The notes under the pieces were generated by a model. The model had not been told where the DNA came from and ran no database searches. It was given only the letters and a program-made list of their open reading frames with translations. Source: a virus. From it: 37,713 nucleotides of DNA. The translations under genes and the position numbers were made by a program. Position 1 is the stretch's first letter, and every line of letters begins with the position of its first letter. The stretch covers positions 84,139-121,851 of the IMG/VR virus record IMGVR_UViG_3300036770_003386. One strand, 5' to 3'. Positions 1,216-36,817 of this stretch are shown here, in pieces.

Positions 1216-1273
1216 ATCCTATAGCATCATGGGCACCATGCGACCAGGTTGTGCCAGTTGTCAGACTGTCCGC
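1216..1273 (-). promoter_or_regulatory. Palindrome-promoter module 1
   Basis: TGTGCCAGTTGTCAGACTGTCC at 1250-1271; -10 TAGGAT. Confidence 0.85.
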
Positions 1274-1303
1274 CATGGCGGTCTGATGGGTCTGTGGCGC
1301 CTG

Positions 1304-1383
1304 TAGACTATGGGGACAATCGGCACCAACGGCAGCAGGGTCGCTGCCTGATCAAAGGTCGCCACCGCCCCTGCCATAAAATA
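1304..1383 (+). ncRNA. Putative small non-coding element, copy A (strand uncertain)
   Basis: -10 TAGACT, GGGACAATC, 37 nt, TCGCCACCGCCCCTGCCATAAAATA; same architecture at 3215-3294. Confidence 0.45.
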
Positions 1384-1399
1384 ATGCCGCCCAAAGTAT

Positions 1400-1425
1400 A
1401 AAAAAAGGAGGCAGATTGTGCCTCC
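1400..1425 (-). terminator. Rho-independent terminator
   Basis: GGAGGCA-N5-TGCCTCC plus T7 on minus strand. Confidence 0.85.
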
Positions 1426-1442
1426 TTAATTATACTTTAAGA

Positions 1443-1715
1443 TCAGACTTCGATCTGTTCGATGTCACCATGCTTCAGGGCACGATTAAACTCACGCCCC
1501 CAACTTGTTGCCGCTTTTGCTTCATCATCAGAGAGAAGATTGAACCAGCGTTCACACTCTCCTTCATCTTCCCAAGCGTAGCGATAAACTTTATCGCTGC
1601 TGTTAAATGTAACCAACAGATCGTAGCAGTTATCATCAACTGCGACAATCTCAAGGTGAGCAATGGCGCTGCTGGTGACGGCGGCGCTGATCGAAAGGTC
1701 GGTGGCAGTGGTCAT
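1443..1715 (-). CDS. KTSC-like domain protein
   Basis: SSAI...LLVTFNSSDKVYRY...SWGREFNR matches KTSC pattern. Confidence 0.65.
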   Translation of the reverse strand: MTTATDLSISAAVTSSAIAHLEIVAVDDNCYDLLVTFNSSDKVYRYAWEDEGECERWFNLLSDDEAKAATSWGREFNRALKHGDIEQIEV

Positions 1716-1740
1716 CGGTGTCTGTGTGGTTGATTCGTTA

Positions 1741-1809
1741 AGTCTACAGCATGGGCGGCGGATCTGGTGAGATCAGCGCCGCCCAGTGGACAGTTCTCAG
1801 ACTGTCACA
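1741..1809 (-). promoter_or_regulatory. Palindrome-promoter module 2 (39-bp spacer with GC hairpin)
   Basis: GTGGACAGTTCTCAGACTGTCACA 1786-1809; -10 TAGACT; upstream stop at 1797 inside palindrome. Confidence 0.8.
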
Positions 1810-2534
1810 GACAGTTTCTTACTGTAACCACTAAATTGATGCTTAGAACGACGAGCACGAATTGCCTTGCCATAGATAGAACCTTTAGGTTGAGTTCCAT
1901 GCACTAACAGCGCGAAAGGTTTATCACCAAAACAATGCGAATCGTCGTGATCAACTTCTAATCCTGCTGCGTTTGCTTCCTCTTCAGTCATGAAGACTTT
2001 CGCATAACGATTAAACAATCCTGCATCAATTAGATGATCCCACTTGCCACCATATGATGCGGTGAAGTAGAAGTTAGCAGGAAGATTAAAGTTCAGGAAC
2101 AGTTGCAAACTCTTAGAGTAGCAGTAGAATTTAAGATCAGGATTGCGGATTGCAACTTCAATCCAAGCATCCAAATATGCACCAGAAAAGAAATCGCCAG
2201 ACTCATGAATTCTCACAAGTTTGGTATTCTTTGTGCGGTGCTCTTGGATGCCTTGGTTGATAAGATCCACAGCAGATCCATCCTGCAGAGCATCAACAAT
2301 CAGGCGCAAATTGTTGGCGCGATTCTCAAACGCTGCATCATATTGCACCTCAGAAGATGCAGCGAAGCAACGGAAGATAGTGTGCTCGCCGTCTTGAATG
2401 GTACGCTTGCCATTGTCATCAACAACAGCAAAAGACTTGCAAAACAATGCACCTGGGCAGGTTTTACCTGCTGGCAGGTTAAAGATTAGGGTTTGCTTGC
2501 CGAGTTTGGCGTTGCCTTTGGTGAAGTTCAGCAT
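1797..2534 (-). CDS. Gene product 88 (GP88)-like protein
   Basis: GNAKL...FNLPAGKTCPGA..C, CFA, RIHESGDFFS..YL..W, FYCYSK motifs. Confidence 0.8.
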   Translation of the reverse strand: MLNFTKGNAKLGKQTLIFNLPAGKTCPGALFCKSFAVVDDNGKRTIQDGEHTIFRCFAASSEVQYDAAFENRANNLRLIVDALQDGSAVDLINQGIQEHRTKNTKLVRIHESGDFFSGAYLDAWIEVAIRNPDLKFYCYSKSLQLFLNFNLPANFYFTASYGGKWDHLIDAGLFNRYAKVFMTEEEANAAGLEVDHDDSHCFGDKPFALLVHGTQPKGSIYGKAIRARRSKHQFSGYSKKLSVTV

Positions 2535-2558
2535 GGTGGTGTGGTGTGAACTGCGATC

Positions 2559-2618
2559 ATCCTACAGGGCAGGTTGGGGGCATCGCTGCCCCCGCTGTGC
2601 CACTTCCCCAACTGTCAC
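2559..2618 (-). promoter_or_regulatory. Palindrome-promoter module 3
   Basis: TGTGCCACTTCCCCAACTGTCAC 2596-2618; -10 TAGGAT; stop at 2615 inside. Confidence 0.8.
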
Positions 2619-3079
2619 CAGAGACCTTCTTTAGTCAAACGCACCACAAAAGCGTTAGCGATTGCACCACAATGGGGGCAAATTGTGGCGTATTTGATCT
2701 CACTCTTCAGAGAATACTTCGTAGAATCGTTATAGTAACGACCAAACTTGAAGCGATAGATTGCACTGAGAGTTTTGAGCAGTTGGCGTTGCTCAATGCT
2801 GCCAACTTTATGATACATTCCGATGAAATGGCGGAAGTCTGGGAAATAAGACTTAGCGCAACTTTCAAGTTTGTTGATAACTTGCTCCGCCAATTCTTGA
2901 CCCAAATGTGGTGTCAATTCTTGAATGGCAAACTTATTGAATGGCAGCAGTTCTTCATCCAAAGTAGAAGAAACTGGTTTTGCCATTGTTTCAGAAACCA
3001 TGCCTAAGATCTTGGCGATCTCATCAATTTGTCCCTGAACTTGGTTGCCATTGATAACAACTTGGATGGTGTTGTTCAT
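2615..3079 (-). CDS. Hypothetical protein (154 aa, CPHC near C-terminus)
   Basis: Start reassigned to ATG 3079 (MNNTIQ) downstream of module 4. Confidence 0.75.
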   Translation of the reverse strand: MNNTIQVVINGNQVQGQIDEIAKILGMVSETMAKPVSSTLDEELLPFNKFAIQELTPHLGQELAEQVINKLESCAKSYFPDFRHFIGMYHKVGSIEQRQLLKTLSAIYRFKFGRYYNDSTKYSLKSEIKYATICPHCGAIANAFVVRLTKEGLW

Positions 3080-3124
3080 CTTGGTGGGGTGGTGAGTCGG
3101 CGTCAGTGGTGCGCCGTTGACGGA

Positions 3125-3185
3125 ATGATGCCCCGCCAGAACCGAGCACCACAACCACCTTTGTGCCACCTTCTGAACTGGCACA
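3125..3185 (-). promoter_or_regulatory. Palindrome-promoter module 4 (apparently bidirectional)
   Basis: TGTGCCACCTTCTGAACTGGCACA 3162-3185; weak -10 CATCAT; plus-strand TATCTT about 30 bp on other side. Confidence 0.75.
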
Positions 3186-3214
3186 GACCTAGCGTTTTTT
3201 GTCCCGTCTGGCAG

Positions 3215-3294
3215 TATCTTATAGGGACAATCAGATGAGGGGAGGGGTATCCCTGTAGACGACAATACATCGCCACCGCTCCTGCCTTGAAATA
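3215..3294 (+). ncRNA. Putative small non-coding element, copy B (strand uncertain)
   Basis: -10 TATCTT, GGGACAATC, 37 nt, TCGCCACCGCTCCTGCCTTGAAATA. Confidence 0.45.
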
Positions 3295-3297
3295 CTC

Positions 3298-3327
3298 ATT
3301 CTCAATAAGACCTTGCTTATTGAGAAT
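3298..3327. repeat. Perfect inverted repeat ATTCTCAATAAG-N6-CTTATTGAGAAT
   Basis: Seen directly; related copy at 8283-8310. Confidence 0.75.
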
Positions 3328-3330
3328 AAG

Positions 3331-3359
3331 AAAAAGGGGATGGACACCACTCCATCCCC
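3331..3359 (-). terminator. Rho-independent terminator
   Basis: GGGGATGGA-N6-TCCATCCCC plus T5 on minus strand. Confidence 0.8.
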
Positions 3360-3457
3360 CCAGTTTCACCTTGACCCCTATGTGCTATGATTATCGGTGC
3401 TCTTACGCGCAGGGTGACTTTTCAACAAGCGGGAGGCAAACCCCTTCCTCCCTTGTC

Positions 3458-3646
3458 TTAGAATTGTATCATCCAGTCTGGGTCATTGTCAAGCGAGACC
3501 CAGAAGAAGTAGCGTTTGTTCATGGATGCAAGGAACATCTTGTTTCCTTTGCTTTGCTCAATGATACAGTGAGCATTGTTCCCCATCATGTTAGCAAAGC
3601 GGTTCTTTGCTTTCTTGGAGATGGGTGTGACTGTTGCGGTTTGCAT
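3458..3646 (-). CDS. Hypothetical phage protein (VTPISKKAKNRFANMM)
   Basis: ORF downstream of module 5. Confidence 0.8.
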   Translation of the reverse strand: MQTATVTPISKKAKNRFANMMGNNAHCIIEQSKGNKMFLASMNKRYFFWVSLDNDPDWMIQF

Positions 3647-3667
3647 GATCTCAATCTCGATGTGTGC

Positions 3668-3738
3668 AATCTAGTTGGTGATGCAGGTCTCGTCGAGATC
3701 ATGTGTGCCACTAGATGCAGTGGCACATCTCGTCGAGT
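3668..3738 (-). promoter_or_regulatory. Palindrome-promoter module 5 flanked by TCTCGTCGAG repeats
   Basis: Perfect TGTGCCACT-N6-AGTGGCACA 3704-3727; -10 TAGATT. Confidence 0.8.
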
Positions 3739-3740
3739 TT

Positions 3741-3887
3741 CTAGAACTGGATCTCGTCTAGGGTTGGAGCAGAATCTTGACTAGATTCACTGCTGTCCAT
3801 CCCAGCACACAGTGCATCGAGAATCTCCAGAATCCGTTGCCCATTTTGTCCTTGGCGAAGTTGAGAAATCAGAAGTTGCTTAGTCAT
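3741..3887 (-). CDS. Small hypothetical protein (48 aa, MTKQLLISQLRQG)
   Basis: Manual ORF packed 2 nt after previous stop. Confidence 0.7.
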   Translation of the reverse strand: MTKQLLISQLRQGQNGQRILEILDALCAGMDSSESSQDSAPTLDEIQF

Positions 3888-3889
3888 AA

Positions 3890-4069
3890 TCAAACACAAA
3901 GATAAGGGAAATTAGAATCAACAAGTCCAGGAACTGCAGAACTCGTTACTTTAAGTTCAGTTCCATCATCGTACCAACCGTCATTAGAAGAATCATAGAC
4001 GAGAACCTCTCTGTCGAGTTGATCCTTGTCGAGAGTCTGAATCATCTGGAGGAGTTGTTGGTAGGTCAT
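3890..4069 (-). CDS. Hypothetical protein (59 aa), paralog of 4069..4266
   Basis: MTYQQLLQMIQTLDKDQLDREV; TGATG coupling. Confidence 0.75.
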   Translation of the reverse strand: MTYQQLLQMIQTLDKDQLDREVLVYDSSNDGWYDDGTELKVTSSAVPGLVDSNFPYLCV

Positions 4070-4266
4070 CAGAAACGAATGATAGGGTGATCAACATCGA
4101 GGACATCACATTCCTCAGTTGCAAATACAAACTCTACACCATCCTGATAATACTCTGCGTCAGTATCATCACCACAGTCAAACTTAGAATCGCAGATGCA
4201 AACATCCTGATTCAGTTGTTCTTCTGTGAGTTGCTGTAACTGTTGCAGAAGTTCTTGGTAGGTCAT
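4069..4266 (-). CDS. Acidic hypothetical protein (65 aa, MTYQELLQQLQQLTEEQLNQDV)
   Basis: Start reassigned to ATG 4266 after module 6. Confidence 0.8.
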   Translation of the reverse strand: MTYQELLQQLQQLTEEQLNQDVCICDSKFDCGDDTDAEYYQDGVEFVFATEECDVLDVDHPIIRF

Positions 4267-4288
4267 GAGGTGTCTCAGGAACAAAGGT

Positions 4289-4349
4289 AGTATGGCAGGG
4301 ATCTTGGGGAAGATCAAGACCCCTGTGTGCCAGTTGTCAGACTGGTTTC
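4289..4349 (-). promoter_or_regulatory. Palindrome-promoter module 6
   Basis: TGTGCCAGTTGTCAGACTGG from 4326; TTGATC-17-CATACT; stop at 4337 inside. Confidence 0.85.
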
Positions 4350-4594
4350 TTGATTTGAAGAAACACCATTTGAATCGGTTCACCTTGAATGTGAAAGAAC
4401 ACATAATTGGGGTGAACTTCAATGTCACCATCAACAGTGGAAAAATCAACATAATCATTCCCATCATTGTCGGCAATGTAAGGATTGTCATCCGTATCAT
4501 AACCAACAAAGTAGAGCGTATCATTCACGCAGACAGCATAAGCATCTGCCAGAAGATTGTGAAACTGTTCAAGAGTGATGGTGGTGTTAGTCAT
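4337..4594 (-). CDS. Acidic hypothetical protein
   Basis: ORF track; ATGA coupling with upstream gene. Confidence 0.8.
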   Translation of the reverse strand: MTNTTITLEQFHNLLADAYAVCVNDTLYFVGYDTDDNPYIADNDGNDYVDFSTVDGDIEVHPNYVFFHIQGEPIQMVFLQIKKPV

Positions 4595-4746
4595 TTCAGG
4601 AGTTGGGTGAAGTTGTCAACGACAATTTGGCAGGCAAGATCTTGAACCTCTGAGAGGTAGTCTACCTCACCGAACTGTGATTCTAGCAGGCAGATCAGGT
4701 CATTCTGGATCTGTTCACGAACTGAAATAATGTCAGTTTGGGTCAT
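4591..4746 (-). CDS. Small hypothetical protein (51 aa, MTQTDIISVREQIQNDL)
   Basis: Manual ORF coupled on both sides. Confidence 0.75.
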   Translation of the reverse strand: MTQTDIISVREQIQNDLICLLESQFGEVDYLSEVQDLACQIVVDNFTQLLK

Positions 4747-5075
4747 CACACGTTGGCGGGGTGATTGACAATTTGGTCTTCAATTTGGTTAGCAAGTTCT
4801 TCCATGAACTCACGGTCTTCGCCATCCTCAAACTGTGCGTTGTTTCGCACAATTCGCATCAGGAAGTCAATCTGTTCGTCGGTGAAGTGATACTCTTTGA
4901 GTGTGTCACAGGGGAGAATTGAAGTGGCAAAGTCTAAAGAAATCTTGCTTCTTGCTGACAGTTGATGAAGTTTAACATCATCAACATTCAGAACTACATT
5001 TTCAGTTTTTGGTAGAAGTTCTTGAAAAGATTTCAGTGTGAGATAGATGTAATCCAGTTTCTCTTGTGAAGTCAT
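4746..5075 (-). CDS. Hypothetical protein (109 aa, contains KEYHFTDEQID)
   Basis: Start reassigned to ATG 5075 (ATGA overlap). Confidence 0.75.
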   Translation of the reverse strand: MTSQEKLDYIYLTLKSFQELLPKTENVVLNVDDVKLHQLSARSKISLDFATSILPCDTLKEYHFTDEQIDFLMRIVRNNAQFEDGEDREFMEELANQIEDQIVNHPANV

Positions 5076-5200
5076 TTTCTCAGAGGAGAATTGAAGTAAC
5101 GAGTGAAGCATAGCACCAGAATGATGCCAGTGGAGATGACACCGACCAGTCCGAGAACTGTCACAGTGTCGCCAGCGAAAGTGTAAGTGTCAGGTGTCAT
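5072..5200 (-). CDS. Small single-pass membrane protein (42 aa, MTPDTYTFAGDTVTVLGLVGVISTGIILVLCFTRYFNSPLRK)
   Basis: Manual ORF, hydrophobic helix, ATGA coupling on both sides. Confidence 0.7.
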   Translation of the reverse strand: MTPDTYTFAGDTVTVLGLVGVISTGIILVLCFTRYFNSPLRK

Positions 5201-5322
5201 TTCTTATCAGGAGGATGAACGGATGAAGGATCATAAAGACCACCATAACCGCTGCGGTCTTCAAGATACCAGAGGATAGAAAAGGTGGAGAGAATTACTC
5301 CACCCAGAATCAATGTTACCAT
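5197..5322 (-). CDS. Small membrane protein (41 aa, MVTLILGGVILSTFSILWYLEDR)
   Basis: Manual ORF, TGATG coupling. Confidence 0.6.
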   Translation of the reverse strand: MVTLILGGVILSTFSILWYLEDRSGYGGLYDPSSVHPPDKK

Positions 5323-5489
5323 CAATCCTCCTCATCAAAGAGAGCATGAATCTTGTTCCTGATAGCATAAACATCTTCAGGATTGAACAGATCATCATCG
5401 AGTGCATTACCGATGAAGTTGTAGATCAGATCCCACTGATCTTCGGTGAAGAGTTGGCGGTAGACTTGCTTGGAGAGTGTGTCTGCCAT
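5322..5489 (-). CDS. Small acidic hypothetical protein (55 aa, MADTLSKQVYRQLF)
   Basis: Manual ORF downstream of module 7. Confidence 0.75.
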   Translation of the reverse strand: MADTLSKQVYRQLFTEDQWDLIYNFIGNALDDDLFNPEDVYAIRNKIHALFDEED

Positions 5490-5515
5490 GGGGTTGGTGT
5501 CTCAGGAACAAAGGT

Positions 5516-5574
5516 AATGTAGAACGGATTGGGGGGAAAGTCAACCCCCCAGTGCCAGTGCTCAGAGTGTCACA
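5516..5574 (-). promoter_or_regulatory. Palindrome-promoter module 7
   Basis: AGTGCCAGTGCTCAGAGTGTCACA 5551-5574; TTGACT-17-TACATT; stop at 5562 inside. Confidence 0.85.
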
Positions 5575-5696
5575 TCACTCTGAAGGAACTGTTCCCAAGA
5601 CTGCTCCTCTTCTTCTCCATCCCACAGTTCGGGAATGTCGAAGATCTCACCAGGAGCATCTTGAATCTCAGACCAAAAATCGGTGTCGAAGTCCAT
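5562..5696 (-). CDS. Very acidic microprotein (44 aa, MDFDTDFWSEIQDAPGEIFDIPELWDGEEEEQSWEQFLQSDVTL)
   Basis: Manual ORF between modules 8 and 7; no K/R/H. Confidence 0.75.
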   Translation of the reverse strand: MDFDTDFWSEIQDAPGEIFDIPELWDGEEEEQSWEQFLQSDVTL

Positions 5697-5721
5697 AAGA
5701 GGTGTGGTTGACGACAAGGGA

Positions 5722-5781
5722 ACAATAAACGAAAAAGGGGGCGTTGCCGCCCCCCAGTGTGCCAGTTATCAGACTTCCACA
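5722..5781 (-). promoter_or_regulatory. Palindrome-promoter module 8
   Basis: TGTGCCAGTTATCAGACTTCCACA 5758-5781; GGGGGCG hairpin; -10 TATTGT; stop at 5769 inside. Confidence 0.8.
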
Positions 5782-5990
5782 AGTGCTTCGCTCTTGCGGG
5801 CGCGGTGAATGTAGGAACCCACCGAACCCTCAGGATCAGCAATCACTTGCTCCAGACTTGCAATGAAACCTGAAGGATCAGCAGCACGGAAGGTGTACTG
5901 CTTTTCACCACTGGTAAACTGGATGTTCACCTGATCACCGTCCACGCTCAGGTCAGAGATGGCGGTGCTGTTGATTTTGAAGTTACGCAT
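5769..5990 (-). CDS. KTSC-like domain protein (73 aa)
   Basis: STAISDLSV...IQFTSGEKQYTF...SVGSYIHR; start at ATG 5990 since the longer track ORF runs through the tRNA. Confidence 0.7.
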   Translation of the reverse strand: MRNFKINSTAISDLSVDGDQVNIQFTSGEKQYTFRAADPSGFIASLEQVIADPEGSVGSYIHRARKSEALVEV

Positions 5991-6036
5991 GATGTTGTTT
6001 TGGATTTTGTAGGATAATAGGCACACTGTGTGCCAG

Positions 6037-6120
6037 TAGGGCGAGGGAGACTTGAACTCCCACGGGCATAAGCCCAACAGATTTTAAGTCTGGTGTGTCT
6101 ACCGATTCCACCACCGCCCC
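6037..6120 (-). tRNA. trnL: tRNA-Leu (anticodon TAA), CCA not encoded
   Basis: GGGGCGG acceptor, CCAGA-CTTAAAA-TCTGT anticodon arm, long variable arm, GTTCAAGTC T-loop. Confidence 0.95.
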
Positions 6121-6128
6121 GTGGTATG

Positions 6129-6162
6129 TGACAATCATAGCAAGACCTGCTATGATTGTCAA
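6129..6162 (-). promoter_or_regulatory. Fully palindromic sigma70 promoter between the tRNAs
   Basis: TTGACA-17-TATGAT inside inverted repeat TGACAATCATAGCA-N5-TGCTATGATTGTCA. Confidence 0.8.
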
Positions 6163-6163
6163 G

Positions 6164-6237
6164 TGCAGGTTGTCAGGATCGAACTGACCTCTGCCGATTT
6201 ATGAGATCGGTCCCTTCAACCAGATGGGTAAACCTGC
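6164..6237 (-). tRNA. tRNA with CAT anticodon (elongator Met or Ile2), CCA not encoded
   Basis: GCAGGTT/AACCTGC acceptor, CCGAT-CTCATAA-ATCGG anticodon arm, GTTCGATCC; lacks initiator features. Confidence 0.9.
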
Positions 6238-6647
6238 TCGCTTAAGAACTCTTCCCAACTGCCCCCATAGTGTAGCATATGATGGCAGTTATGGCAAAGG
6301 AGATCGCATTTATCAACTTCCTCCTTGATAAGTTCCCATCGTCGATTTGCGAAACTTCTCCCATCAAGTTTTAGTTCTTTTTGAGATGGATCTCGATGAT
6401 GAAAACATAAAGTTGCTGGTCTATCTTCACCGCATGTTTGACACTTACCACCTTTGTATTGAAGTGCTTTCCATTTGTTGGAATATGCTCTTCCTTTTTG
6501 TTCGGTATAAGTGTTCCTGTCCTTGATTACGGGATCGTTTTTATACCTCCATTTGGCACGACAACTTTCATTACAATAAAGTTTTGCTCTGCCACCCTTT
6601 CTTTCGTGTTGGGGAACCTCTAATCCACAAGATTTGCAGACAATCAT
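6216..6647 (-). CDS. HNH homing endonuclease with N-terminal Zn finger
   Basis: CxxC..YCNESC; KGGKCQTCG, FHHRDP, EVDKCDLLCHNCH. Confidence 0.9.
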   Translation of the reverse strand: MIVCKSCGLEVPQHERKGGRAKLYCNESCRAKWRYKNDPVIKDRNTYTEQKGRAYSNKWKALQYKGGKCQTCGEDRPATLCFHHRDPSQKELKLDGRSFANRRWELIKEEVDKCDLLCHNCHHMLHYGGSWEEFLSEQVYPSG

Positions 6648-6674
6648 TTTTTATGAAGATAAACATATACCTAA

Positions 6675-7142
6675 TTATGCTGTCACATAGTTAGGAATCT
6701 CTACGAGTTCCACAGGTGCCTTATAGTTGTTCTTATAGCACTTCCAGTTATCGTCGAGATTATACAGATAAGCGTACTCTTCCCCACAAAGATTTCCAGA
6801 TACAAACTCGTCGAAACTTGTATGAGCGATCTCTAGTTCCTCACCACGCTCTGTGTAATAGAGTGGTTGAGGTTCACGATCATCCTCATACATCAGATAA
6901 CCTGCGGCATCATGAACATATTCTCCCTTCTCATCGCGGACGGGAATATCATGATTCCATGTGCCACGAGTTCGAAGATGTGACATTGAACCACCGTCGA
7001 TGAGTTCTTTTACATCTTCACGGTTCTGATAGTGTTCTACCAGGATTTTTCCGTTGTGTGATACATAACCATCCCAGTGGCAGTAAACACTAACCACAGT
7101 GTGGTCAGGAAGTTCGATACCAATGCGTGAGCGAGTTGCCAT
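6675..7142 (-). CDS. Conserved phage protein (MATRSRIG...YCHWDGY family)
   Basis: Motifs; paralog at 19489..19896. Confidence 0.9.
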   Translation of the reverse strand: MATRSRIGIELPDHTVVSVYCHWDGYVSHNGKILVEHYQNREDVKELIDGGSMSHLRTRGTWNHDIPVRDEKGEYVHDAAGYLMYEDDREPQPLYYTERGEELEIAHTSFDEFVSGNLCGEEYAYLYNLDDNWKCYKNNYKAPVELVEIPNYVTA

Positions 7143-7164
7143 GGTGTGTTGGTGAACTGTGAGA

Positions 7165-7223
7165 ATTATAGGGCACTCAGAGAGGTGTCTGTGTGCCCCG
7201 TGGACAGTTTTCAGAGTGTCACA
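7165..7223 (-). promoter_or_regulatory. Palindrome-promoter module 9
   Basis: GTGGACAGTTTTCAGAGTGTCACA 7200-7223; -10 TATAAT; stop at 7219 inside. Confidence 0.85.
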
Positions 7224-7401
7224 GAAGGTCTTCGTACTCCCCAGAGTCCAGAGCGTCCTCCAGGGCGATCACAAGACCGTCGAAGTCCTCTGACGATGGT
7301 AGCACACCGATGAGGAGATCGACAAGACCACCGTACTCCTCACGGAGTTCGTTCAGGTACTCAGTGCGGTTTGCGTAACCGTTCTCAACGTAGATCGACA
7401 T
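7219..7401 (-). CDS. Acidic hypothetical phage protein (ENGYANRTEYL...EDFDGLV)
   Basis: ORF track. Confidence 0.85.
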   Translation of the reverse strand: MSIYVENGYANRTEYLNELREEYGGLVDLLIGVLPSSEDFDGLVIALEDALDSGEYEDLL

Positions 7402-7435
7402 GAGTGGTTCAGGTGTTGAACGAGTTCAATCTACA

Positions 7436-7663
7436 TCAGAAAAACGTGAGTTGTGTCATCCCATCAGACAGTTCAGGTTTTGGCATAAGGAGACTCCTCA
7501 ACCGTTCCAGATGTGATATCCTGTCGTGCTCTTTTGCCTCTTGACAAAAATCAACAGGTACACCATGCTCAGTGTTAAAGAACCCATAAGAATCCACATT
7601 GGCTTTATATAATGCCGAATCCTTATAATAATACACCCAGTTCTCATCAATGAAAAATTTCAA
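7436..7663 (-). CDS. Hypothetical protein (TTG start)
   Basis: TTGA overlap with upstream ORF. Confidence 0.6.
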   Translation of the reverse strand: MKFFIDENWVYYYKDSALYKANVDSYGFFNTEHGVPVDFCQEAKEHDRISHLERLRSLLMPKPELSDGMTQLTFF

Positions 7664-7809
7664 AATGGATCAAACTCCTCTGTGCTTACGTGTACACTCT
7701 CATCACCTTCTAACTCTAGAAGATCTTTCCAGTCTATATCATACACATCTAGATCATCATAACAGTCTATATCTAGAGTGACAATGACCCTGCGTTTCTG
7801 CATTAGCAT
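7660..7809 (-). CDS. Acidic microprotein (49 aa, MLMQKRRVIVTLDIDCYDDL)
   Basis: Manual ORF. Confidence 0.7.
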   Translation of the reverse strand: MLMQKRRVIVTLDIDCYDDLDVYDIDWKDLLELEGDESVHVSTEEFDPF

Positions 7810-7840
7810 AAGAACTCGATGTAATGTGTACTAGATTCTA

Positions 7841-7996
7841 TCATGCATAGTGTCGATATGCAAGATCTTGATAATCTTGCCCATCGCGTGCATAATCCTC
7901 GTCGAGATCTGATGTGCCTAGTTCGGCATATGTATCTTCGTCGAGATCTGCATAATCATTGCTGTATGTATAGTCGAGATCGTAGTCGTCGTACAT
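7841..7996 (-). CDS. Asp/Tyr-rich microprotein (51 aa, MYDDYDLDYTYSNDYADLDED)
   Basis: Manual ORF downstream of module 10. Confidence 0.7.
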   Translation of the reverse strand: MYDDYDLDYTYSNDYADLDEDTYAELGTSDLDEDYARDGQDYQDLAYRHYA

Positions 7997-8019
7997 AACT
8001 CGTCGAGATAACTGTGTTT

Positions 8020-8072
8020 ATTGTACCATAAAACTCGACTAGATTCAAGCGAGTGTGCCAGTCTCGTCGAGA
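8020..8072 (-). promoter_or_regulatory. Module 10: half-palindrome fused to TCTCGTCGAGA repeat
   Basis: TGTGCCAGTCTCGTCGAGA from 8054; TTGAAT-17-TACAAT. Confidence 0.75.
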
Positions 8073-8167
8073 TTCATATAAGAATATATAGGTCTTATGA
8101 TAAAAAATGTCATATAACGCTAACATTGTATAAGATTTTGCAAGTCTTATGTGGGTCTTATGCGGGG

Positions 8168-8224
8168 TGTGCCAGTTTTTTGAGTGTCCTGGGGCTTGAC
8201 AAACTGCGCGTCTTATGGTATGCG
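8168..8224. promoter_or_regulatory. Module 11 palindrome with adjacent plus-strand TTGACA
   Basis: TGTGCCAGTTTTTTGAGTGTCC 8168-8189; TTGACA(8196)-17-TATGCG. Confidence 0.6.
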
Positions 8225-8426
8225 GGCAAAGGTCACAAGACTCAGACACATTTATAAGGATTCTCAACAATTACTCTAAATGATTCTCAATAAACATTTT
8301 TATTAAGAATGTTACAAAAAGAACAATATGATTTAATCGAAGAATAACGGAAAATAATCAAATTGCATTGTGTATTATAAAATAACAAGTGTGTTCTCTA
8401 AATAAACAATAGTGTTTTATTGTAAA

Positions 8427-9167
8427 ATGGCACAAGGAATCATCTACCTAATCATCAATAAACAAACTGGGCACAAATACGTTGGTCAAACAACAAACGC
8501 AATGAATAAAATATGGCAAGAGCATATCTCAGAAGCATTGAGAATGTCATCTTCTCCATTACATCGTGCTATGCGTAAGTATGGTAATCACAACTTCATG
8601 ATTAAAGAACTTGATGAATGTGATGATAGTTTATTAAATCAAAAAGAAGAATACTGGATTAAACAATATAATACCTCTAAAAGTGAAGAAGGATATAATA
8701 TTATAAGTGATGATGATAAAGTAGAAGTAAAAATAGAAATACCAGTACCAATACCTGAAAAAAAGATAGAAAGAACAGAACCCTGGGGATTTCAACTAAA
8801 AGAAAATAGAGGCAATGGTAAACACAGTTCAAAAAGAGTAATGGGAATCAATGTAGAAACTGGTGAACAAAAAATATGGGAAAGTATAACTGCGGCTGCA
8901 TTAGAAGTTAATGGAAAATCTGGTAACATACATGGAGCAATTAAACATGGATGGAAAGCATATGGTTACAGATGGAAGAAATTAGACAATACACCAAATA
9001 AAACTCCTATAAGAGGAGTTCATAAAAGAACATGGGAAGAAATAAGATTTGAAAGTATTAATGCAGCAGGTAGATATTTTGGATCTAGCAATATGAGCGG
9101 CATACAAAATAGTTTACGTAATCCTCACAAATACACCTACAAGCAATATTACTGGTTTTATAATTAA
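8427..9167 (+). CDS. GIY-YIG (Seg-like) homing endonuclease with C-terminal NUMOD1-like repeats
   Basis: GIIYLIIN..KYVGQT, E..WI, GYN; two ESI.AA repeats; CTAAATA at 8398 may be a late promoter. Confidence 0.9.
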   Translation: MAQGIIYLIINKQTGHKYVGQTTNAMNKIWQEHISEALRMSSSPLHRAMRKYGNHNFMIKELDECDDSLLNQKEEYWIKQYNTSKSEEGYNIISDDDKVEVKIEIPVPIPEKKIERTEPWGFQLKENRGNGKHSSKRVMGINVETGEQKIWESITAAALEVNGKSGNIHGAIKHGWKAYGYRWKKLDNTPNKTPIRGVHKRTWEEIRFESINAAGRYFGSSNMSGIQNSLRNPHKYTYKQYYWFYN

Positions 9168-9685
9168 ACAGTATAACGACCCAGTTCCCGATTGAAGAAT
9201 CTTCTTAACTTTTTGAGTCTTGAATCATGAATCTTTTCTTTTGTGGTACGATAAATATCATCCTCATATCTGGACGATTCAACATCCTGCATTGCCTTGG
9301 ATTCCATCTGAGGATAACGAATATAAGTGTCTCTGGTGGTAAAGTCACGATTTCTTCCCTTATTGGGTTGGAATCCATGAGACTGATAGAACTTCTGAAG
9401 TTTTGCCTTCTTTCCTTTCTCTGGTGCCAGAGTTAATGTAATTCTTTTCTTTTGTTTGTCCGCATACTTTGAGAGTCCTTTCATAATGCGAGATCCAATA
9501 CCACTGTTTCTTTCTTCAGGTGGAATCCAAATATTGTTCAGACGAATATCACCAGATCGATCATGAGAAGCATCAACATTCACACCATGATGCTTTTTAC
9601 CATAGGCACGGGAAATCTTATTCAGAACTTCTTGTGGTGGTTTTGCATCTTTTGCCTCTTGTACAAACTGAGAGAATGTTTTCAT
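9164..9685 (-). CDS. GNAT acetyltransferase with capsid-targeting leader (putative internal head protein)
   Basis: MKTFSQFVQEA leader; IWIPPEERNSGIGSRIM motif A; LQKFYQSHGF motif B. Confidence 0.85.
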   Translation of the reverse strand: MKTFSQFVQEAKDAKPPQEVLNKISRAYGKKHHGVNVDASHDRSGDIRLNNIWIPPEERNSGIGSRIMKGLSKYADKQKKRITLTLAPEKGKKAKLQKFYQSHGFQPNKGRNRDFTTRDTYIRYPQMESKAMQDVESSRYEDDIYRTTKEKIHDSRLKKLRRFFNRELGRYTV

Positions 9686-11678: not shown

Positions 11679-11699
11679 TTGTAGAAATACTTTTGTGAG

Positions 11700-11707: not shown

Positions 11708-11746
11708 ATTATCGGGAAAGGGGAAAAACAAGAAAAAGAAGTCGTT

Positions 11747-11947: not shown

Positions 11948-11948
11948 A

Positions 11949-27425: not shown

Positions 27426-27432
27426 TCTATTC

Positions 27433-28709: not shown

Positions 28710-28767
28710 ATTATACAACAAAAAAGGGCACCTGTGAAGTGCCCGTGTGCCAGTTTGTTAGGTGTCC
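28710..28767 (-). promoter_or_regulatory. Palindrome-promoter module 19
   Basis: TGTGCCAGTTTGTTAGGTGTCC 28746-28767; GGGCAC hairpin; -10 TATAAT; stop at 28758 inside. Confidence 0.9.
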
Positions 28768-28907
28768 TCTTTCTTTTGCTTTTCAATAAGTTCTCTTAGC
28801 CTTGCTCTACCATAATCTGTGAGTTCTTTTTTGGCATTTCTCAACTCTTCCACTTCCTTATCAGAAAGAAAGAAACCATCAGGAAGATGCCCATATCCTT
28901 CACTCAT
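28758..28907 (-). CDS. Small hypothetical protein (49 aa, ends KEDT)
   Basis: Manual ORF. Confidence 0.7.
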   Translation of the reverse strand: MSEGYGHLPDGFFLSDKEVEELRNAKKELTDYGRARLRELIEKQKKEDT

Positions 28908-31356: not shown

Positions 31357-31413
31357 ATTATAAGGCATCCACAGGGTTTATGGAGTGTCCTTGTGCCAGT
31401 TCTTCAAGTGTCC
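31357..31413 (-). promoter_or_regulatory. Palindrome-promoter module 20
   Basis: TGTGCCAGTTCTTCAAGTGTCC 31392-31413; -10 TATAAT; stop at 31404 inside. Confidence 0.9.
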
Positions 31414-31595
31414 TTCAGTCCAATCAGTTTAGCAAATTCAGGAGTAATGGTGAGGTTTTGTTCTCTTACAAGATTACGAACTTCTTTACGGAGATGAAGA
31501 TACTTATCTCTGTATTCTGTGAGATACTTTTGTGCTCGGTTCTTTTCATCAAAGTCGCACTGGTGTTCGTAGGTTCTACTTTCGTAGTATCTCAT
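31404..31595 (-). CDS. Hypothetical protein (ends KDT)
   Basis: ATGA coupling. Confidence 0.8.
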   Translation of the reverse strand: MRYYESRTYEHQCDFDEKNRAQKYLTEYRDKYLHLRKEVRNLVREQNLTITPEFAKLIGLKDT

Positions 31596-31828
31596 TGACT
31601 TTTCAATTGACGGATTTCACTTTCAAGTTCATAAATGCGTTCAGACATTTGGTGAAGAAACATAATCAACGAACGACTACAAATGGTCTCACCACTATCT
31701 TCTGAAATTGCAGAAATAATGTCTTCTGCTTCCGAGTTGTTATAAGGAAAGAACTCTTTTGCGTGTGCTTCGGGATATTGAATGCCCCAAGTCGTTGCGG
31801 GAATAGTTCGCTCAAAAAGTGTAGTCAT
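31592..31828 (-). CDS. Hypothetical protein
   Basis: ATGA coupling. Confidence 0.8.
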   Translation of the reverse strand: MTTLFERTIPATTWGIQYPEAHAKEFFPYNNSEAEDIISAISEDSGETICSRSLIMFLHQMSERIYELESEIRQLKSQ

Positions 31829-32025
31829 TTCAGTTGCTCCAAAACACCAATAAAAGTATCAATACAATCTTTGGGAATGTGAAAAGGTTCCCCTGTTTTA
31901 GTTTCTTCAACTCCGTGAGTTGTATATTGATTAATCTCTACAAGACCTTGACCATCATCAGTAAATTGGTAGAACCAACCATCTTCGTGGTGAATACGGA
32001 TTTCTTGGGTGATAGAGTAAGTCAT
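31825..32025 (-). CDS. Hypothetical protein (MTYSITQEIRI)
   Basis: ATGA coupling. Confidence 0.8.
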   Translation of the reverse strand: MTYSITQEIRIHHEDGWFYQFTDDGQGLVEINQYTTHGVEETKTGEPFHIPKDCIDTFIGVLEQLK

Positions 32026-32252
32026 TTGATCGTCACAGTTTGATTTTTGATTTGGCAAAGACGGGAAAGATTATCACCCGCAGTAGCAACTTGGAAGAAG
32101 TTGTAGTTAGTCCCACACTGTTCGTTGAGTGCTTGTTGAGTTGTAATGACTTTCATAACTCCTATGATGGGAGCAACAGTAATAACCAAAACAGCACCAC
32201 CAGCAACCAAAACAATCCAAGCATCCATAAGATCAAAGTTGTTGCGTTTCAT
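32022..32252 (-). CDS. Membrane-anchored protein with Cys pair (pilin-like N-terminal helix)
   Basis: TM helix; QCGT...RLC. Confidence 0.8.
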   Translation of the reverse strand: MKRNNFDLMDAWIVLVAGGAVLVITVAPIIGVMKVITTQQALNEQCGTNYNFFQVATAGDNLSRLCQIKNQTVTIK

Positions 32253-32275
32253 TAGTCCTCTGTGTGTACAAGAGT

Positions 32276-32332
32276 ATTATAAGGCAAAAAGGGGTCTTGT
32301 GGAGACCCCCTGTGCCAGTTTGAGAAGTGTCC
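32276..32332 (-). promoter_or_regulatory. Palindrome-promoter module 21
   Basis: TGTGCCAGTTTGAGAAGTGTCC 32311-32332; GGGGTCT hairpin; -10 TATAAT; stop abuts. Confidence 0.9.
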
Positions 32333-32683
32333 TCAAACCCAAGTTCTTACACTTGCCTTTGGATGTTCTTTACAAGCACTCAAAACCTTCTCTACAAAAG
32401 GAACAAAGTCTTTGTAAGTTCCCCAACTATTAGGTGAGTTGAACTTTTTATAATACTCTGGATTTTCTTTGAGTTTCTTCAACCCTTCTTCCAGAGGAGC
32501 AATCAGTTTATCCGCAGTTGGATTTTCACAAAGGTCATATGGATGCCATAAAGCAGTATAAATCCCTGCTTCTTCTGCCATCTTATTCAGGTTGTGAGTG
32601 ATATTAGAAGAAAACAATTCAACTTTATGAGGTTCTTTTCCACCAGTATCAACTTCAACTTCTAACCAAATATCAAGAGACAT
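32333..32683 (-). CDS. Conserved phage protein (MSLDIWL..NITHNL..FNSPNSWG.Y)
   Basis: Start reassigned after module 22. Confidence 0.88.
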   Translation of the reverse strand: MSLDIWLEVEVDTGGKEPHKVELFSSNITHNLNKMAEEAGIYTALWHPYDLCENPTADKLIAPLEEGLKKLKENPEYYKKFNSPNSWGTYKDFVPFVEKVLSACKEHPKASVRTWV

Positions 32684-32707
32684 AATGGGTTCTGTGTGTA
32701 TGAGAGT

Positions 32708-32764
32708 ATTATAAGGCATCTGGGATGCCGTGAAGCACCCACTGTGCCAGTTTGAGAAGTGTCC
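32708..32764 (-). promoter_or_regulatory. Palindrome-promoter module 22
   Basis: TGTGCCAGTTTGAGAAGTGTCC 32743-32764, identical to module 21; stop abuts. Confidence 0.9.
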
Positions 32765-33154
32765 TCAATCTTTAATAAGTTCTACAAGGTCATAAAACTC
32801 ATTATAAACTTCTTCAAGACCATTAGAGTGTCCCTTTTCCCAAGCAAGGTCAAATGCCTTTTGCCTTTTAGGATTATCAGTCACATTAAAGTTCTCAAAA
32901 AGGTCATTCACAAACTCCTCGTGAAGTTTATGCTTTTCATCTGTATATTGAAGTTGGTGTGCTTTGTATCCTTCTTTATCAAGAACTACCTGAATCACAG
33001 CATCAGGATACTCTTCTTCTAATTCAGGTTTAGTTTTTTCATAGTCATGCCCAGACCAAAGAACTTCACCCTTATCATAAACATAATACTTGATGTAATC
33101 CTTTTTGTTGGGATAAGCAGTTTGTGATTTGGAGTAATAATCAAAGGGTTTCAT
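32765..33154 (-). CDS. Conserved phage protein (AWEKGHSNG.EEV)
   Basis: ORF track. Confidence 0.85.
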   Translation of the reverse strand: MKPFDYYSKSQTAYPNKKDYIKYYVYDKGEVLWSGHDYEKTKPELEEEYPDAVIQVVLDKEGYKAHQLQYTDEKHKLHEEFVNDLFENFNVTDNPKRQKAFDLAWEKGHSNGLEEVYNEFYDLVELIKD

Positions 33155-33514: not shown

Positions 33515-33571
33515 ATTATAAGGCAAAAAGAGCACCTTTGGAGTGCCCCTGTGCCAGTTATTCAAGTGTCC
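33515..33571 (-). promoter_or_regulatory. Palindrome-promoter module 23
   Basis: TGTGCCAGTTATTCAAGTGTCC 33550-33571; -10 TATAAT; stop at 33562 inside. Confidence 0.9.
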
Positions 33572-33714
33572 TCACCCAAGTTCTTATAAATCGCATCCAT
33601 CCATATCTTATCAATATATTTCCGTTCTTCATCAGTAATCATATTTGCTCTCATCCACTCTTCAAAGGTGATGTTATTATCATCCAAGTATTTTTGGAGT
33701 TCTTCAAAGTTCAT
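33562..33714 (-). CDS. Small hypothetical protein (ends GEDT)
   Basis: Start at ATG 33714 with GAGG RBS. Confidence 0.75.
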   Translation of the reverse strand: MNFEELQKYLDDNNITFEEWMRANMITDEERKYIDKIWMDAIYKNLGEDT

Positions 33715-35197: not shown

Positions 35198-35475
35198 TTG
35201 GTTCCATCACAATAGATATGAGGATAAGTGTCAGGATACTTCGCAGGTGGTTTTGAAACTATAGGAGGAATTGTATAAGGAATAGGATTTGGATTTGTGA
35301 GAGGAGTATAAGGAGTGTTATAAAGTAGTGGAGATTTACTCAAATACTCTTCTACGATGTTACAGTCCCAACCATCTGCATAAATCTCCTTACCATAATC
35401 AACAGCATCTGGTCGTGCGGGAAAGGAAGCAACATAAGTTCCTTTGTGATAGAGTGAATAAACTTTCATAATCAA
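35194..35475 (-). CDS. Hypothetical protein, Pro-rich C-terminus
   Basis: ORF track. Confidence 0.75.
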   Translation of the reverse strand: MIMKVYSLYHKGTYVASFPARPDAVDYGKEIYADGWDCNIVEEYLSKSPLLYNTPYTPLTNPNPIPYTIPPIVSKPPAKYPDTYPHIYCDGTK

Positions 35476-35633
35476 TCAGTAGTTTTAGAAGAACTATAAT
35501 AGGATTGAAGCAAAACAGCAACAAAAAGAAACCATCCCCAACCAGCAATCCCGTGAAAAGCAAGAATGGTTGCTCCAATCACACAAGCAATAGAAGGTAG
35601 ATTAACAAGAAGTAGAATAAGTGCGTGGTTCAT
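35472..35633 (-). CDS. Small membrane protein (GWGWFLF)
   Basis: Start reassigned after module 24. Confidence 0.8.
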   Translation of the reverse strand: MNHALILLLVNLPSIACVIGATILAFHGIAGWGWFLFVAVLLQSYYSSSKTTD

Positions 35634-35654
35634 CGGTTCTTTGTTTGTAGAGTT

Positions 35655-35712
35655 ATTATACGACAAAAGGCACCTGATTTCAAGTGCCTTTGTGACGGTT
35701 TCTCAAGTGTCC
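35655..35712 (-). promoter_or_regulatory. Palindrome-promoter module 24
   Basis: TGTGACGGTTTCTCAAGTGTCC 35691-35712; TTGAAA-17-TATAAT; stop at 35703 inside. Confidence 0.85.
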
Positions 35713-35993
35713 TCACCAAACTCCTTTTTGAGTTGTTCATATGCCTTACGACGATTTTCTTTTCGTTCTTCTTCCAGTTTCATTCTCTTTTCATACTCTT
35801 CATCATTTTCAAGTCGGGTTTTGTAGACATAGTATTCTCTTTGATTATCGTAATTATAATCATAATCAATACCTTCCCAACCATCTTCCTTACACTTTTG
35901 AAGAGTAGAAATGATATCGTCTATTTTACCATCAAACTCACCACACAAATAAAAATCTTTCCTTTCTTTGATTGTAATGCGTTCAGCAGTCAT
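35703..35993 (-). CDS. Hypothetical protein, paralog of 36817..37146 (ends GEDT)
   Basis: FDGKIDDII..LQ..GWEGI..YK.RLENDEEY. Confidence 0.85.
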   Translation of the reverse strand: MTAERITIKERKDFYLCGEFDGKIDDIISTLQKCKEDGWEGIDYDYNYDNQREYYVYKTRLENDEEYEKRMKLEEERKENRRKAYEQLKKEFGEDT

Positions 35994-36016
35994 CAGTCCT
36001 CTGTGTGTATAGAAGT

Positions 36017-36074
36017 ATTATACAACAAAGGACACCTGATTTCAAGTGCCCTTGTGCCAGTTTAGTAAGTGTCC
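36017..36074 (-). promoter_or_regulatory. Palindrome-promoter module 25
   Basis: TGTGCCAGTTTAGTAAGTGTCC 36053-36074; TTGAAA-17-TATAAT; stop abuts. Confidence 0.9.
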
Positions 36075-36464
36075 TTATCGTCCAAACCTATTGTAAAGGA
36101 ACACTCTTCCACCTCCCGTAGGAACAGTAACCACAATTTCATAGCCCAGTTTAGTAATCATAGTTGCCAGATTGCTTCCGTGACTTTTAGCACTACAAGA
36201 AGTATGAGGATAATGGTCAATAAACTCCACACTCTTACAAGGATTTTCAAGTGCTTCTGTGATTGCTTTGTGATAAAGAATGGTAGTTCTACCCGTGCCT
36301 CTGGTTGTTGCTTCTTCGTATTTTTGAAGAACATCATCAATTAAACTCATAGTATCACCACAGTTGTTGATAGAACACCATTTGTACTTATCAACAAGAC
36401 TTTGAATTATTTTGAGTGCCTCGTAAAGTTCTTGAGCAAGTCGTTGTTTGTAGTCAGTAGTCAT
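36075..36464 (-). CDS. Hypothetical protein with P-loop-like RGTGRTT
   Basis: ORF track; AGGAG RBS. Confidence 0.8.
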   Translation of the reverse strand: MTTDYKQRLAQELYEALKIIQSLVDKYKWCSINNCGDTMSLIDDVLQKYEEATTRGTGRTTILYHKAITEALENPCKSVEFIDHYPHTSCSAKSHGSNLATMITKLGYEIVVTVPTGGGRVFLYNRFGR

Positions 36465-36466
36465 TT

Positions 36467-36730
36467 TTATTCTCCTCCAATATGAGATGTTGGTTTTTCG
36501 TCAGGATTGCGACTTACAGAAGCACACCATTCTCTACCGTCATATACTCCTGGAAAGTATGTTCTTTTATGTGTCCAAAGAGTGAATGGTGTTCCTTCAC
36601 TACATCCATAACCATCATCAAACTCTTTGAGTAGTTCTTCTTCTGTGAGAGTGGAACTTACAACATCATCAAAGGTTTCTTTATGTTTCTTCATTTCGTG
36701 TTGAATGAGTTCTTTCCAGTTAGTGTTCAT
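36467..36730 (-). CDS. Conserved phage protein (FDDGYG..G.PFTLWT..YFP.VYDG.EW..SV.RNP)
   Basis: Widespread phage motif. Confidence 0.88.
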   Translation of the reverse strand: MNTNWKELIQHEMKKHKETFDDVVSSTLTEEELLKEFDDGYGCSEGTPFTLWTHKRTYFPGVYDGREWCASVSRNPDEKPTSHIGGE

Positions 36731-36759
36731 TTACAATCCCTTTGGTTGATTATAAAATC

Positions 36760-36817
36760 ATTATACGACAAAGGACACCTGAAATCAAGTGCCCGTGTTC
36801 CAGTTCGTAAAGTGTCC
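36760..36817 (-). promoter_or_regulatory. Palindrome-promoter module 26
   Basis: TGTTCCAGTTCGTAAAGTGTCC 36796-36817; -10 TATAAT; stop abuts. Confidence 0.9.

Follow-up and report, generated by a model that had tools for sequence, protein, structure and literature searches.

The attC sites of integrons run from RYYYAAC to GTTRRRY over about 57–141 bp. For the promoter stem-loops (PeSLs) of phages RB49 and phi1, Arbiol et al. proposed homologous shuffling without a dedicated recombinase and already drew the comparison with integrons; mini-circles have been shown for these elements (PMC2839356). A third described element, CGRE1, mediates the binding and activation of yfr2 and yfr4 promoters of Prochlorococcus (MED4) by PMM1637, a PlmA orthologue of the GntR family; the evidence of Lambrecht et al. 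came from pull-down, electrophoretic mobility shift assay (EMSA) and an E. coli reporter (PMC6191309). The present study concerns a 37,713-nt stretch of viral DNA (the window; positions 84,139 to 121,851 of IMG/VR record IMGVR_UViG_3300036770_003386), which forms the final 37.7 kb of a linear virus contig 121.9 kb long and 57% complete. Within it a 24-bp palindrome recurs in modules with a spacer and a −10 box, which an earlier reading of the sequence (the original prediction) took for integron-like cassette joints.

The explanation that we consider probable combines a PlmA-activated promoter, a nested terminator and homologous shuffling. Each module would be a phage early promoter, at which the host GntR-family protein PlmA, bound to the palindrome, would act as activator and stand in for a −35 box. 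PlmA is predicted to bind half-sites in an inverted arrangement with a 4-bp gap, and its binding would activate the downstream genes early in infection. The hairpin nested in the spacer would end the upstream transcript, while the repeated modules would serve as seams for gene exchange by ordinary homologous recombination, presumably carried out by phage recombination proteins. The PlmA part of this reading is based on the fixed spacing of 28–31 bp between palindrome and −10 box, on the same half-sites and geometry at host yfr2 genes, and on co-occurrence with a PlmA-like gene in Acidobacteria.

The left 8 kb of the window matches the Synechococcus phage S-SRM01 at 73.7%, with 47% of the query covered; of 294 records that it matches, 289 carry Synechococcus, Prochlorococcus or cyanophage names. 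The window represents the region of small genes in a T4-like cyanophage that is related to S-SRM01. Nearly all of its genes are small, lie on the minus strand and have no known function; the named ones among 62 proteins scanned are mainly endonucleases of the HNH or homing type, and one further protein is Mom-like.

A recurrent palindrome and its −10 box

The predicted number of 26 palindromes was recovered, the list used here dropping a weak hit at 21059 and adding a copy at 5142 that scores on the other strand. On the plus strand, 16 24-mers lie within five mismatches of the ideal sequence, compared with a mean of 0.23 and a maximum of 3 in 200 shuffles. A weight matrix scored 26 forward positions at more than 8 bits, where the null gave a mean of 1.5 and at most 4; this count is partly circular because the matrix was trained on 24 of the copies. 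The palindrome is imperfect, as first described: no copy matches the ideal, and the best, at 3162, has two mismatches. Outside the window, the same contig holds three more copies above 18 bits (G000 C1 26418, 29963 and 30735). Modules were also found in S-SRM01, S-PM2 and Syn9; in the small-gene region of Syn9 (44.8–53.0 kb) six modules have a −10-like box about 29–30 bp away, and the stop of gp77 falls on the first bases of the site of one of them.

For comparison, 377 loci were collected, 132 of them by motif pattern, 243 with four genes of the window as bait and 2 by accession, and because of this choice they are no random sample of phages; one bait gene, the homing-endonuclease-like gene at 24683–25504, drew mostly distant loci. 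From 1181 promoter-type sites, 748 had an upstream open reading frame (ORF) validated by diverged homologues, and collapsing left 628. On the transcribed strand the consensus of these 628 sites combines a loose distal arm, xxxG[AC]CA[CG]TT, with a tight proximal arm, AA[CG]TG[GT]CACA, across a gap of four free bases.

The predicted −10-like hexamer lies 28–31 bp from the palindrome, on the minus strand, in 23 of the 26 copies. It lies at 39 bp for palindrome 1786, also as predicted, and palindromes 8168 and 17475 have none at 28–31 bp. Among 1378 unique sites from the window and the 377 loci, the best −10 box is 28–31 bp behind the site in 952, and a faint peak is seen at 40 bp for the sites without a usual −10 (10 sites versus about 4 elsewhere). 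Given this peak, and given that L141 and L144 have a 40-bp spacer of unrelated sequence at the same kind of junction as 1786, the 39-bp spacing there is probably real. At sites 1250 and 3162, −10 boxes stand at the appropriate distance to the left as well as to the right, so that 1250 is probably bidirectional.

Two further predictions about the spacer were borne out. It usually forms a hairpin: 15 of 23 spacers tested (22 of the 28–31 bp class plus that of 1786) fold better than shuffles (p<0.05), seven of the 15 with a T-rich tail, and among the 628 related sites 42% of spacers fold at ≤ −9 kcal/mol, versus 7% when shuffled. A −35 box is often missing, a hexamer with five of six matches being present in only 5 of the 23 window spacers and only 78 of the 628 related sites. 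The analysis supports the original proposal of a putative activator operator centred near −54.

One alternative, which we regard as quite unlikely, is that PlmA binds the palindromes with the main effect of a sponge for host PlmA or of a roadblock at gene ends, the latter comparable to the stoperators of mycobacteriophage L5. Neither effect would need a −10 spacing held within 4 bp in most sites or a −35 box that is mostly missing. The PMM1637 protein, moreover, activated yfr2 reporters (PMC6191309). The arguments for a sponge are that the partial contig carries about 29 strong copies, compared with a handful per host genome, and that CGRE1 occurs nowhere else in MED4, according to the available text of PMC6778093; a roadblock would fit copies 8168 and 17475, which have no −10 box at the usual distance, and the overlap of sites with gene ends.

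Likeness to host yfr2 promoters

The case for PlmA as the activator starts from its described target. Oligo 68 of Table S1, from the MED4 yfr2 promoter, contains AACTGGCACA followed by TGTGACAATT, with 55 nt left to its end, and the element thus stops about 55 nt short of the transcription start (PMC6191309). The arms of the phage consensus equal these half-sites letter for letter. The phage distal arm ends 55–57 nt before the expected start, matching the position of TGTGACAATT; the expected start is deduced from the −10 box, as distal arm +4 +10 +29–30 +6 and about +6–7 nt. The partner half-site lies upstream in MED4, where the two stand back to back, and downstream after 4 bp in the phage.

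Additional evidence came from other cyanobacteria. A partial scan of GTDB genomes with the strict palindrome gave 121 loci, 84 of them in Acidobacteriota and 14 in cyanobacteria. In seven of the 14 cyanobacterial exact matches a −10 box at the phage spacing is closely followed by a Yfr2-type 5′ end, and in two of the seven cyanobacterial loci submitted to Rfam, the Cyano-1 family begins 40 nt behind the site. In a class-wide yfr2 sample, 10 of 16 anchored loci scored at least 12 bits at a gap of 40–44 nt. A family sample, presumed to be picocyanobacteria and with 48 of 51 loci anchored, had the phage geometry in 31 of 32 high-GC yfr2 loci (p<0.05) and the back-to-back pair in 2 of the 32, while among low-GC loci the back-to-back pair occurred in 6 of 12. 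The recognition helix TGLHRNT(I/V)SKVY is identical in all six cyanobacterial orthologues compared, two high-GC genomes included, and is also encoded in the PMM1637 primers. In S. elongatus, PlmA is essential, abundant and bound by PII-PipX, and the available text of the same source describes its regulon as largely unknown (PMC5083789). NCBIfam holds no PlmA model, and a PDB search returned only GntR DNA-binding domains.

Some palindromes in cyanobacteria precede other sequences. Two Mojavia sites 2 kb apart (L385:401–490 and L386:401–490) stand before two similar stretches that are not of the Yfr2 type and contain CAAACGTAGCTCGTTTTG. These are candidates for a second small RNA controlled by this operator; an Rfam search of the stretches gave no match. 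In Trichormus (L485:301–624) the ORF behind a site starts with MSRLTTTQARRNF, and its leader by eye resembles phage leaders; the ORF is possibly a prophage remnant or an antitoxin-like gene.

PlmA-like genes and the palindrome in Acidobacteria

Among the 107 non-cyanobacterial hits of the scan, 47 again have their best −10 box at 28–31 bp, and many acidobacterial ORFs downstream of a site open, by eye, with a signal-peptide-like sequence. PlmA has been described as exclusive to cyanobacteria in the available literature. An acidobacterial GntR protein shares 31% identity with it over 273 aa by BLAST, and their C-terminal domains match in HHalign with a probability of 98% (E 6.5e-14). The motif, at one mismatch or fewer, occurs in four of eight acidobacterial genomes with a PlmA-like gene versus none of 73 without (Fisher p 4e-5, or 4e-4 minus the seed genome, kinship being ignored in both), and a reversed pattern was absent from the 81 acidobacterial genomes. 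For three of the PlmA-like GntR genes (L537:1708–2671, L608 and L542) a palindrome lies 1–18 nt behind their stop. These data suggest a regulon that, within the literature searched, is undescribed.

Several observations weigh against PlmA as the reader of the phage palindrome. EMSA has demonstrated binding for back-to-back half-sites, which the phage does not use: fewer than 0.1% of its sites have an upstream third half. As far as the available text of PMC6191309 goes, the single half-site of yfr5 was not shifted in EMSA, so the second arm matters. The promoter-side arms of the hosts are weaker than those of the phage. Five yfr2 loci of the class-wide sample (L514, L517, L518, L525 and L527) have a TTGACA promoter instead of the palindrome, and five more (L551–L553, L555 and L556) have at most part of a half-site. 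In Acidobacteria, four of the eight genomes with the gene have no match at one mismatch, and five of eight PlmA-like loci examined have no nearby site.

The differing arm arrangement of the proven PlmA site, and phage arms that are nearer the ideal than those of the host, could also point to a different activator, either a factor encoded by the phage or delivered in the virion, or a host protein other than PlmA. A phage factor could hide among the small genes, most of which belong to no known family. One candidate of this kind, a phage-encoded GntR protein, was rejected, no GntR gene being found in six phage records. We consider a different activator unlikely, since a phage factor would leave unexplained both the site and spacing at yfr2 and the co-occurrence with PlmA-like genes in Acidobacteria, and the half-sites match CGRE1 in every letter.

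The link between PlmA and the phage modules is well supported by sequence and absent from the literature searched: no paper connecting PlmA with cyanophages was found there, most subscription journals being outside the reach of that search. If it is correct, the early-promoter element of T4-like cyanophages would have a reader that can be tested, and PlmA would have a general operator; according to the accessible part of PMC5780444, these phages have no control of the motA/asiA type. A conserved host factor would also explain one early programme across different hosts, and infection could be tied to light and nitrogen state. We give roughly even weight to the truth and the falsity of a broader proposal, in which T4-like cyanophages start infection through host PlmA at dozens of near-ideal operators, with the PII-PipX-PlmA sensor of nitrogen and energy setting the pace at which infection begins, and in which the inverted 24-bp palindrome would be a general operator of the PlmA family that reaches Acidobacteria and there fronts genes for exported proteins.

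Stop codons in the palindrome

The original prediction saw in the palindrome a recombination joint by which accessory cassettes are captured, excised and reordered. In an integron-like system a dedicated recombinase would cut such a joint close to the middle of the palindrome. One argument for such a joint, the packing of upstream stop codons into the site, was confirmed as an observation. All 19 stop overlaps listed earlier were recovered, and the seven described as flush overlap the 24-mer by its last 2–4 bases. When the 114 window ORFs left after filtering are considered, 17 of the 26 sites hold a stop, compared with 1.4 at random positions (maximum 7 in 5000 draws). The four proteins ending in D-T-stop are real ORFs with no evident mutual likeness by eye. 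Among the 628 related sites the stop begins at offsets −3 to 13 in 362, or 21 per nucleotide versus 0.6–1.8 further upstream.

The way in which genes enter the site bears on the cause. All three frames are used (166/158/130), and stops occur at eight or more positions. A fixed D-T-stop register was ruled out, as only 50 of the 362 overlapping genes end so and all three frames occur. Chance read-through into the module was also rejected as the sole cause: it predicts that 30–44% of entering ORFs stop at or in the site, and 80% do. In-frame stop triplets are 2–8 times commoner than at the same positions when non-coding (at offset 9, 64% versus 23%). Since stops exceed both the rate expected from chance read-through and that of non-coding triplets, their placement is selected.

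Stop placement follows the hairpin. Where the hairpin is strong, the stop lies in or at the site for 220 of 264 genes, and 14 genes read past; without a strong hairpin the numbers are 79 and 49 of 217 (p 2e-8 for read-through). A terminator-like stem starts a median of 13.5 nt after the stop in the 178 cases with a site and 21 nt in the 298 without; from this comparison the palindrome fills the ordinary gap between stop and terminator. The overlap can be explained by this filling together with a conserved promoter-side arm that is stop-free in every frame. The window is tightly packed in general, with a gap of ≤3 nt at 70 of the 95 junctions without a site; T4 late promoters, used as a compaction control, provided only 21 cases, three of them overlapping. 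Stop overlap is thus a feature that tracks the hairpin and general compaction, and transcription from upstream probably terminates at the nested hairpin. At two acidobacterial loci the same site lies 1 nt behind the stop codon of the regulator itself, on the chromosome, so that stop adjacency needs no cassette system. In 34 of the 628 related sites the upstream gene reads through the module, so that its stop codon is the TAA in TATAAT, as at 14766.

Gene exchange at the modules

Gene gain and loss by way of modules, as predicted, is supported by the 128-aa accessory gene at 32333–32719 (−), which is flanked by two modules with identical 24-mers and is missing in L291, L292 and L293. This case would suit an integron-like joint, as would the distribution of 62 alignment ends between the window and its relatives, 21 of which fall in modules, 23 at other junctions and 18 elsewhere (0.8 per module versus 0.24 per other junction). 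Only 7 of the 21 module ends lie in the palindrome itself, with 3 in the hairpin and 11 in the −10 box or leader. In L291, palindrome, hairpin and −10 box come from the upstream module, and the sequences switch behind the −10 box, within the leader stretch TACACACAGA. Some close pairs do switch inside the palindrome, which a joint at that place would lead one to expect; the crossover intervals of 19 triplets are scattered.

A second line of evidence came from the hairpin. Of the anchored site pairs, 234 share the upstream gene only, 295 the downstream gene only and 48 both. Counting one pair per family at ≥90% identity, 14 of 37 families show the hairpin moving together with the downstream gene, and 13 of 34 show it moving together with the upstream gene; it is shared in 12 of 16 when both genes are shared, against a background of 1% in genome-matched controls. 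A cut at the centre of the palindrome predicts that the hairpin always goes with the downstream gene, and the observed 14 of 37 therefore counts against it.

Tight junctions without a site, which lie inside the would-be cassettes, also break. At 80–90% identity they did so in 57% and 59% of cases (270/470 and 270/455) versus 66% and 76% for modules, at 90–97% in 50% and 51% versus 63% and 69%, and above 97% in 30% and 32% versus 30% and 37%, the last module figures representing only 23 and 19 cases. The enrichment of breaks at modules over ordinary junctions is modest; in these comparisons the genes were called by our own script, the pairs are related to one another, and metagenome contigs may be chimeric at repeats.

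The search for a recombinase was negative: no PF00589 tyrosine recombinase was found in the window's own contig (57% complete) or in any of five relatives, three of them complete by CheckV, and no PF00239 serine recombinase in the same five. A laboratory deletion in S-PM2 removed 5799–15339 (PMC4503421); its reading as site-to-site excision was rejected, as both ends lie at least 723 bp from the nearest site start. Several genes can lie between two sites and shuffle independently, so the DNA between sites is not one moving unit. Among the joints listed from assembled contigs of eight DNA runs, none closes a site-to-site circle. Many of these joints have sides shorter than 30 nt and reflect other modules with other hairpins, and several lie at ordinary start/stop junctions (31591–32022, 32245–33148 and 18046–19297). 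Six RNA runs, also searched as contigs, shared only 5–7% of words.

With scattered crossovers, no tyrosine recombinase found in the contig or five relatives and breaks at tight junctions as well, the proposal of an integron-like joint at the palindrome is largely refuted, and we consider it very improbable. As judged from the aligned sequences, module behaviour is probably PeSL-like homologous shuffling.

Individual modules and neighbouring features

The modules are given from left to right, with the strand in brackets. The first, at 1216–1273 (−), has its palindrome at 1250–1273, a 28-bp spacer and a −10 box TAGGAT, with a rightward TAGACT (1304–1309) at 30 bp. At 1741–1809 (−) the 39-bp spacer of palindrome 1786–1809 folds nearly whole (−23.4 kcal/mol), the −10 box is TAGACT, and the stop of a 245-aa gene lies inside at 1797. 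The palindrome at 2596–2619 (module 2559–2619, −) has a 31-bp hairpin spacer and stop 2615 inside. The symmetric palindrome 3162–3185 (module 3125–3220, no strand assigned) has CATCAT 31 bp to its left, TATCTT 29 bp to its right and no upstream stop. A second symmetric one, 3704–3727 (3668–3727, −), has TAGATT at 30 bp, no hairpin, and lies within a cluster of the near-palindrome TCTCGTCGAGA. Palindrome 4326–4349 (4289–4349, −) has a hairpin spacer and stop 4337 inside, and 5142–5165 (5107–5165, −), whose promoter-side arm is weak, has TATGCT at 29 bp and lies within a 42-aa ORF. Three more with internal stops are 5551–5574 (5516–5574, −; hairpin spacer; stop 5562), 5758–5781 (5722–5781, −; terminator-like hairpin with a T run; stop 5769) and 7200–7223 (7165–7223, −; hairpin spacer; TATAAT; stop 7219).

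The strong palindrome at 8168–8191, with no strand assigned, has no −10 box at 28–31 bp on either side and a TTGACA box 5 bp to its right. Palindrome 12759–12782 (12724–12782, −) has TATAAT, no hairpin, and inside it the stop (12767) of a putative 57-aa ORF; at 14800–14823 (14765–14823, −) a 165-aa upstream ORF reads through to the TAA of the −10 box. Palindrome 16243–16266 (16207–16266, −) has no significant hairpin and holds the stop of the Mom-like gene (16263). The copy at 17475–17498 (−) is degenerate, with one good arm and stop 17485 inside. A strong hairpin accompanies palindrome 19958–19981 (19922–19981, −), with stop 19980 at its outer edge, and a terminator-like one accompanies 24661–24684 (24625–24684, −), with the stop of the homing-endonuclease-like gene at 24683. 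Palindrome 27404–27427 (27369–27427, −) has a weak hairpin and TATAAT, the nearest stop, 27433, being outside.

Further right, D-T-stop occurs at 28758 in palindrome 28746–28769 (28710–28769, −; terminator-like hairpin), at 31404 in 31392–31415 (31357–31415, −; hairpin), at 33562 in 33550–33573 (33515–33573, −; terminator-like hairpin) and at 35703 in 35691–35714 (35655–35714, −; hairpin). The identical palindromes around the accessory gene are 32311–32334 (32276–32334, −; terminator-like hairpin; stop 32333) and 32743–32766 (32708–32766, −; stop 32765). The last two, 36053–36076 (36017–36076, −; stop 36075) and 36796–36819 (36760–36819, −; stop 36817), both have a hairpin with a T-rich tail.

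The −10 boxes are non-consensus in the modules of 1–8000 and TATAAT in modules further right; GC content is 43–49% in 1–8000 versus mostly 32–41% in the rest (one bin 43.5%). The rightward −10 boxes of sites 1250 and 3162 lead into gene-free stretches (1304–1400 and 3215–3310, +) that are alike, both opening with GGGACAATC and containing CGCCACCGC. These are candidate paired small RNAs opposite to the gene direction; an Rfam search of the two gave no match. Host-type TTGACA promoters at 844–872 and 8197–8225 (+) also point opposite to the genes, the second beginning 5 bp from palindrome 8168, an arrangement repeated at S-PM2 163156. The near-palindrome TCTCGTCGAGA has 13 matches in the window versus 0.23 expected and forms three clusters in gene-poor stretches (257–315, 3688–3738 and 7897–8072), which could mark an origin or packaging region; it also stands beside an S-SRM01 site at L001:38175. 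The Mom-like DNA modification protein is encoded inside the module array at 16263–16907 (phrog_1384, E 4.7e-61). Genes for tRNA-Leu(TAA) and tRNA-Met(CAT) lie at 6036–6237 (−), beside an HNH endonuclease gene (6216–6647), and a half-site, TGTGCCAGT, adjoins the 3′ end of tRNA-Leu at 6029.

Comparison with known systems

The module is presumably the early-gene regulatory element of T4-like cyanophages described by Doron et al. in 2016; its binding protein was reportedly not identified in that work. With integrons the window shares tandem small genes, an imperfect palindrome that often holds a stop codon, and variable gene content. It differs in that no integrase was found here, the site is 24 bp long with GTT before AAC (GTT-N4-AAC), every unit has its own promoter, and crossovers occur at no single position.

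The parallels with the PeSLs of RB49 and phi1 are closer in form: a repeated promoter with a stem-loop before ORFans, often with the hairpin between −35 and −10, in a unit that opens with the upstream stop (PMC2839356). The window likewise has a stem-loop in the promoter, the upstream stop at the start of the unit and crossovers within units. One difference is that in PeSLs both the −35 and the −10 box follow the consensus and the upstream part is rich in AT, whereas here a palindromic operator mostly replaces the −35.

With CGRE1 the module has in common the half-sites AACTGGCACA and TGTGACAATT, one of them at the same distance from the start, and a position upstream of the −10 box, although the MED4 halves stand back to back and their centre lies about 12 bp further upstream (PMC6191309). 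In the available text of that paper CGRE1 is held to be restricted to marine picocyanobacteria, and phage promoters are not mentioned. The inverted pair with a 4-bp gap is found in the phage, in most other cyanobacterial yfr2 loci scored and in Acidobacteria.

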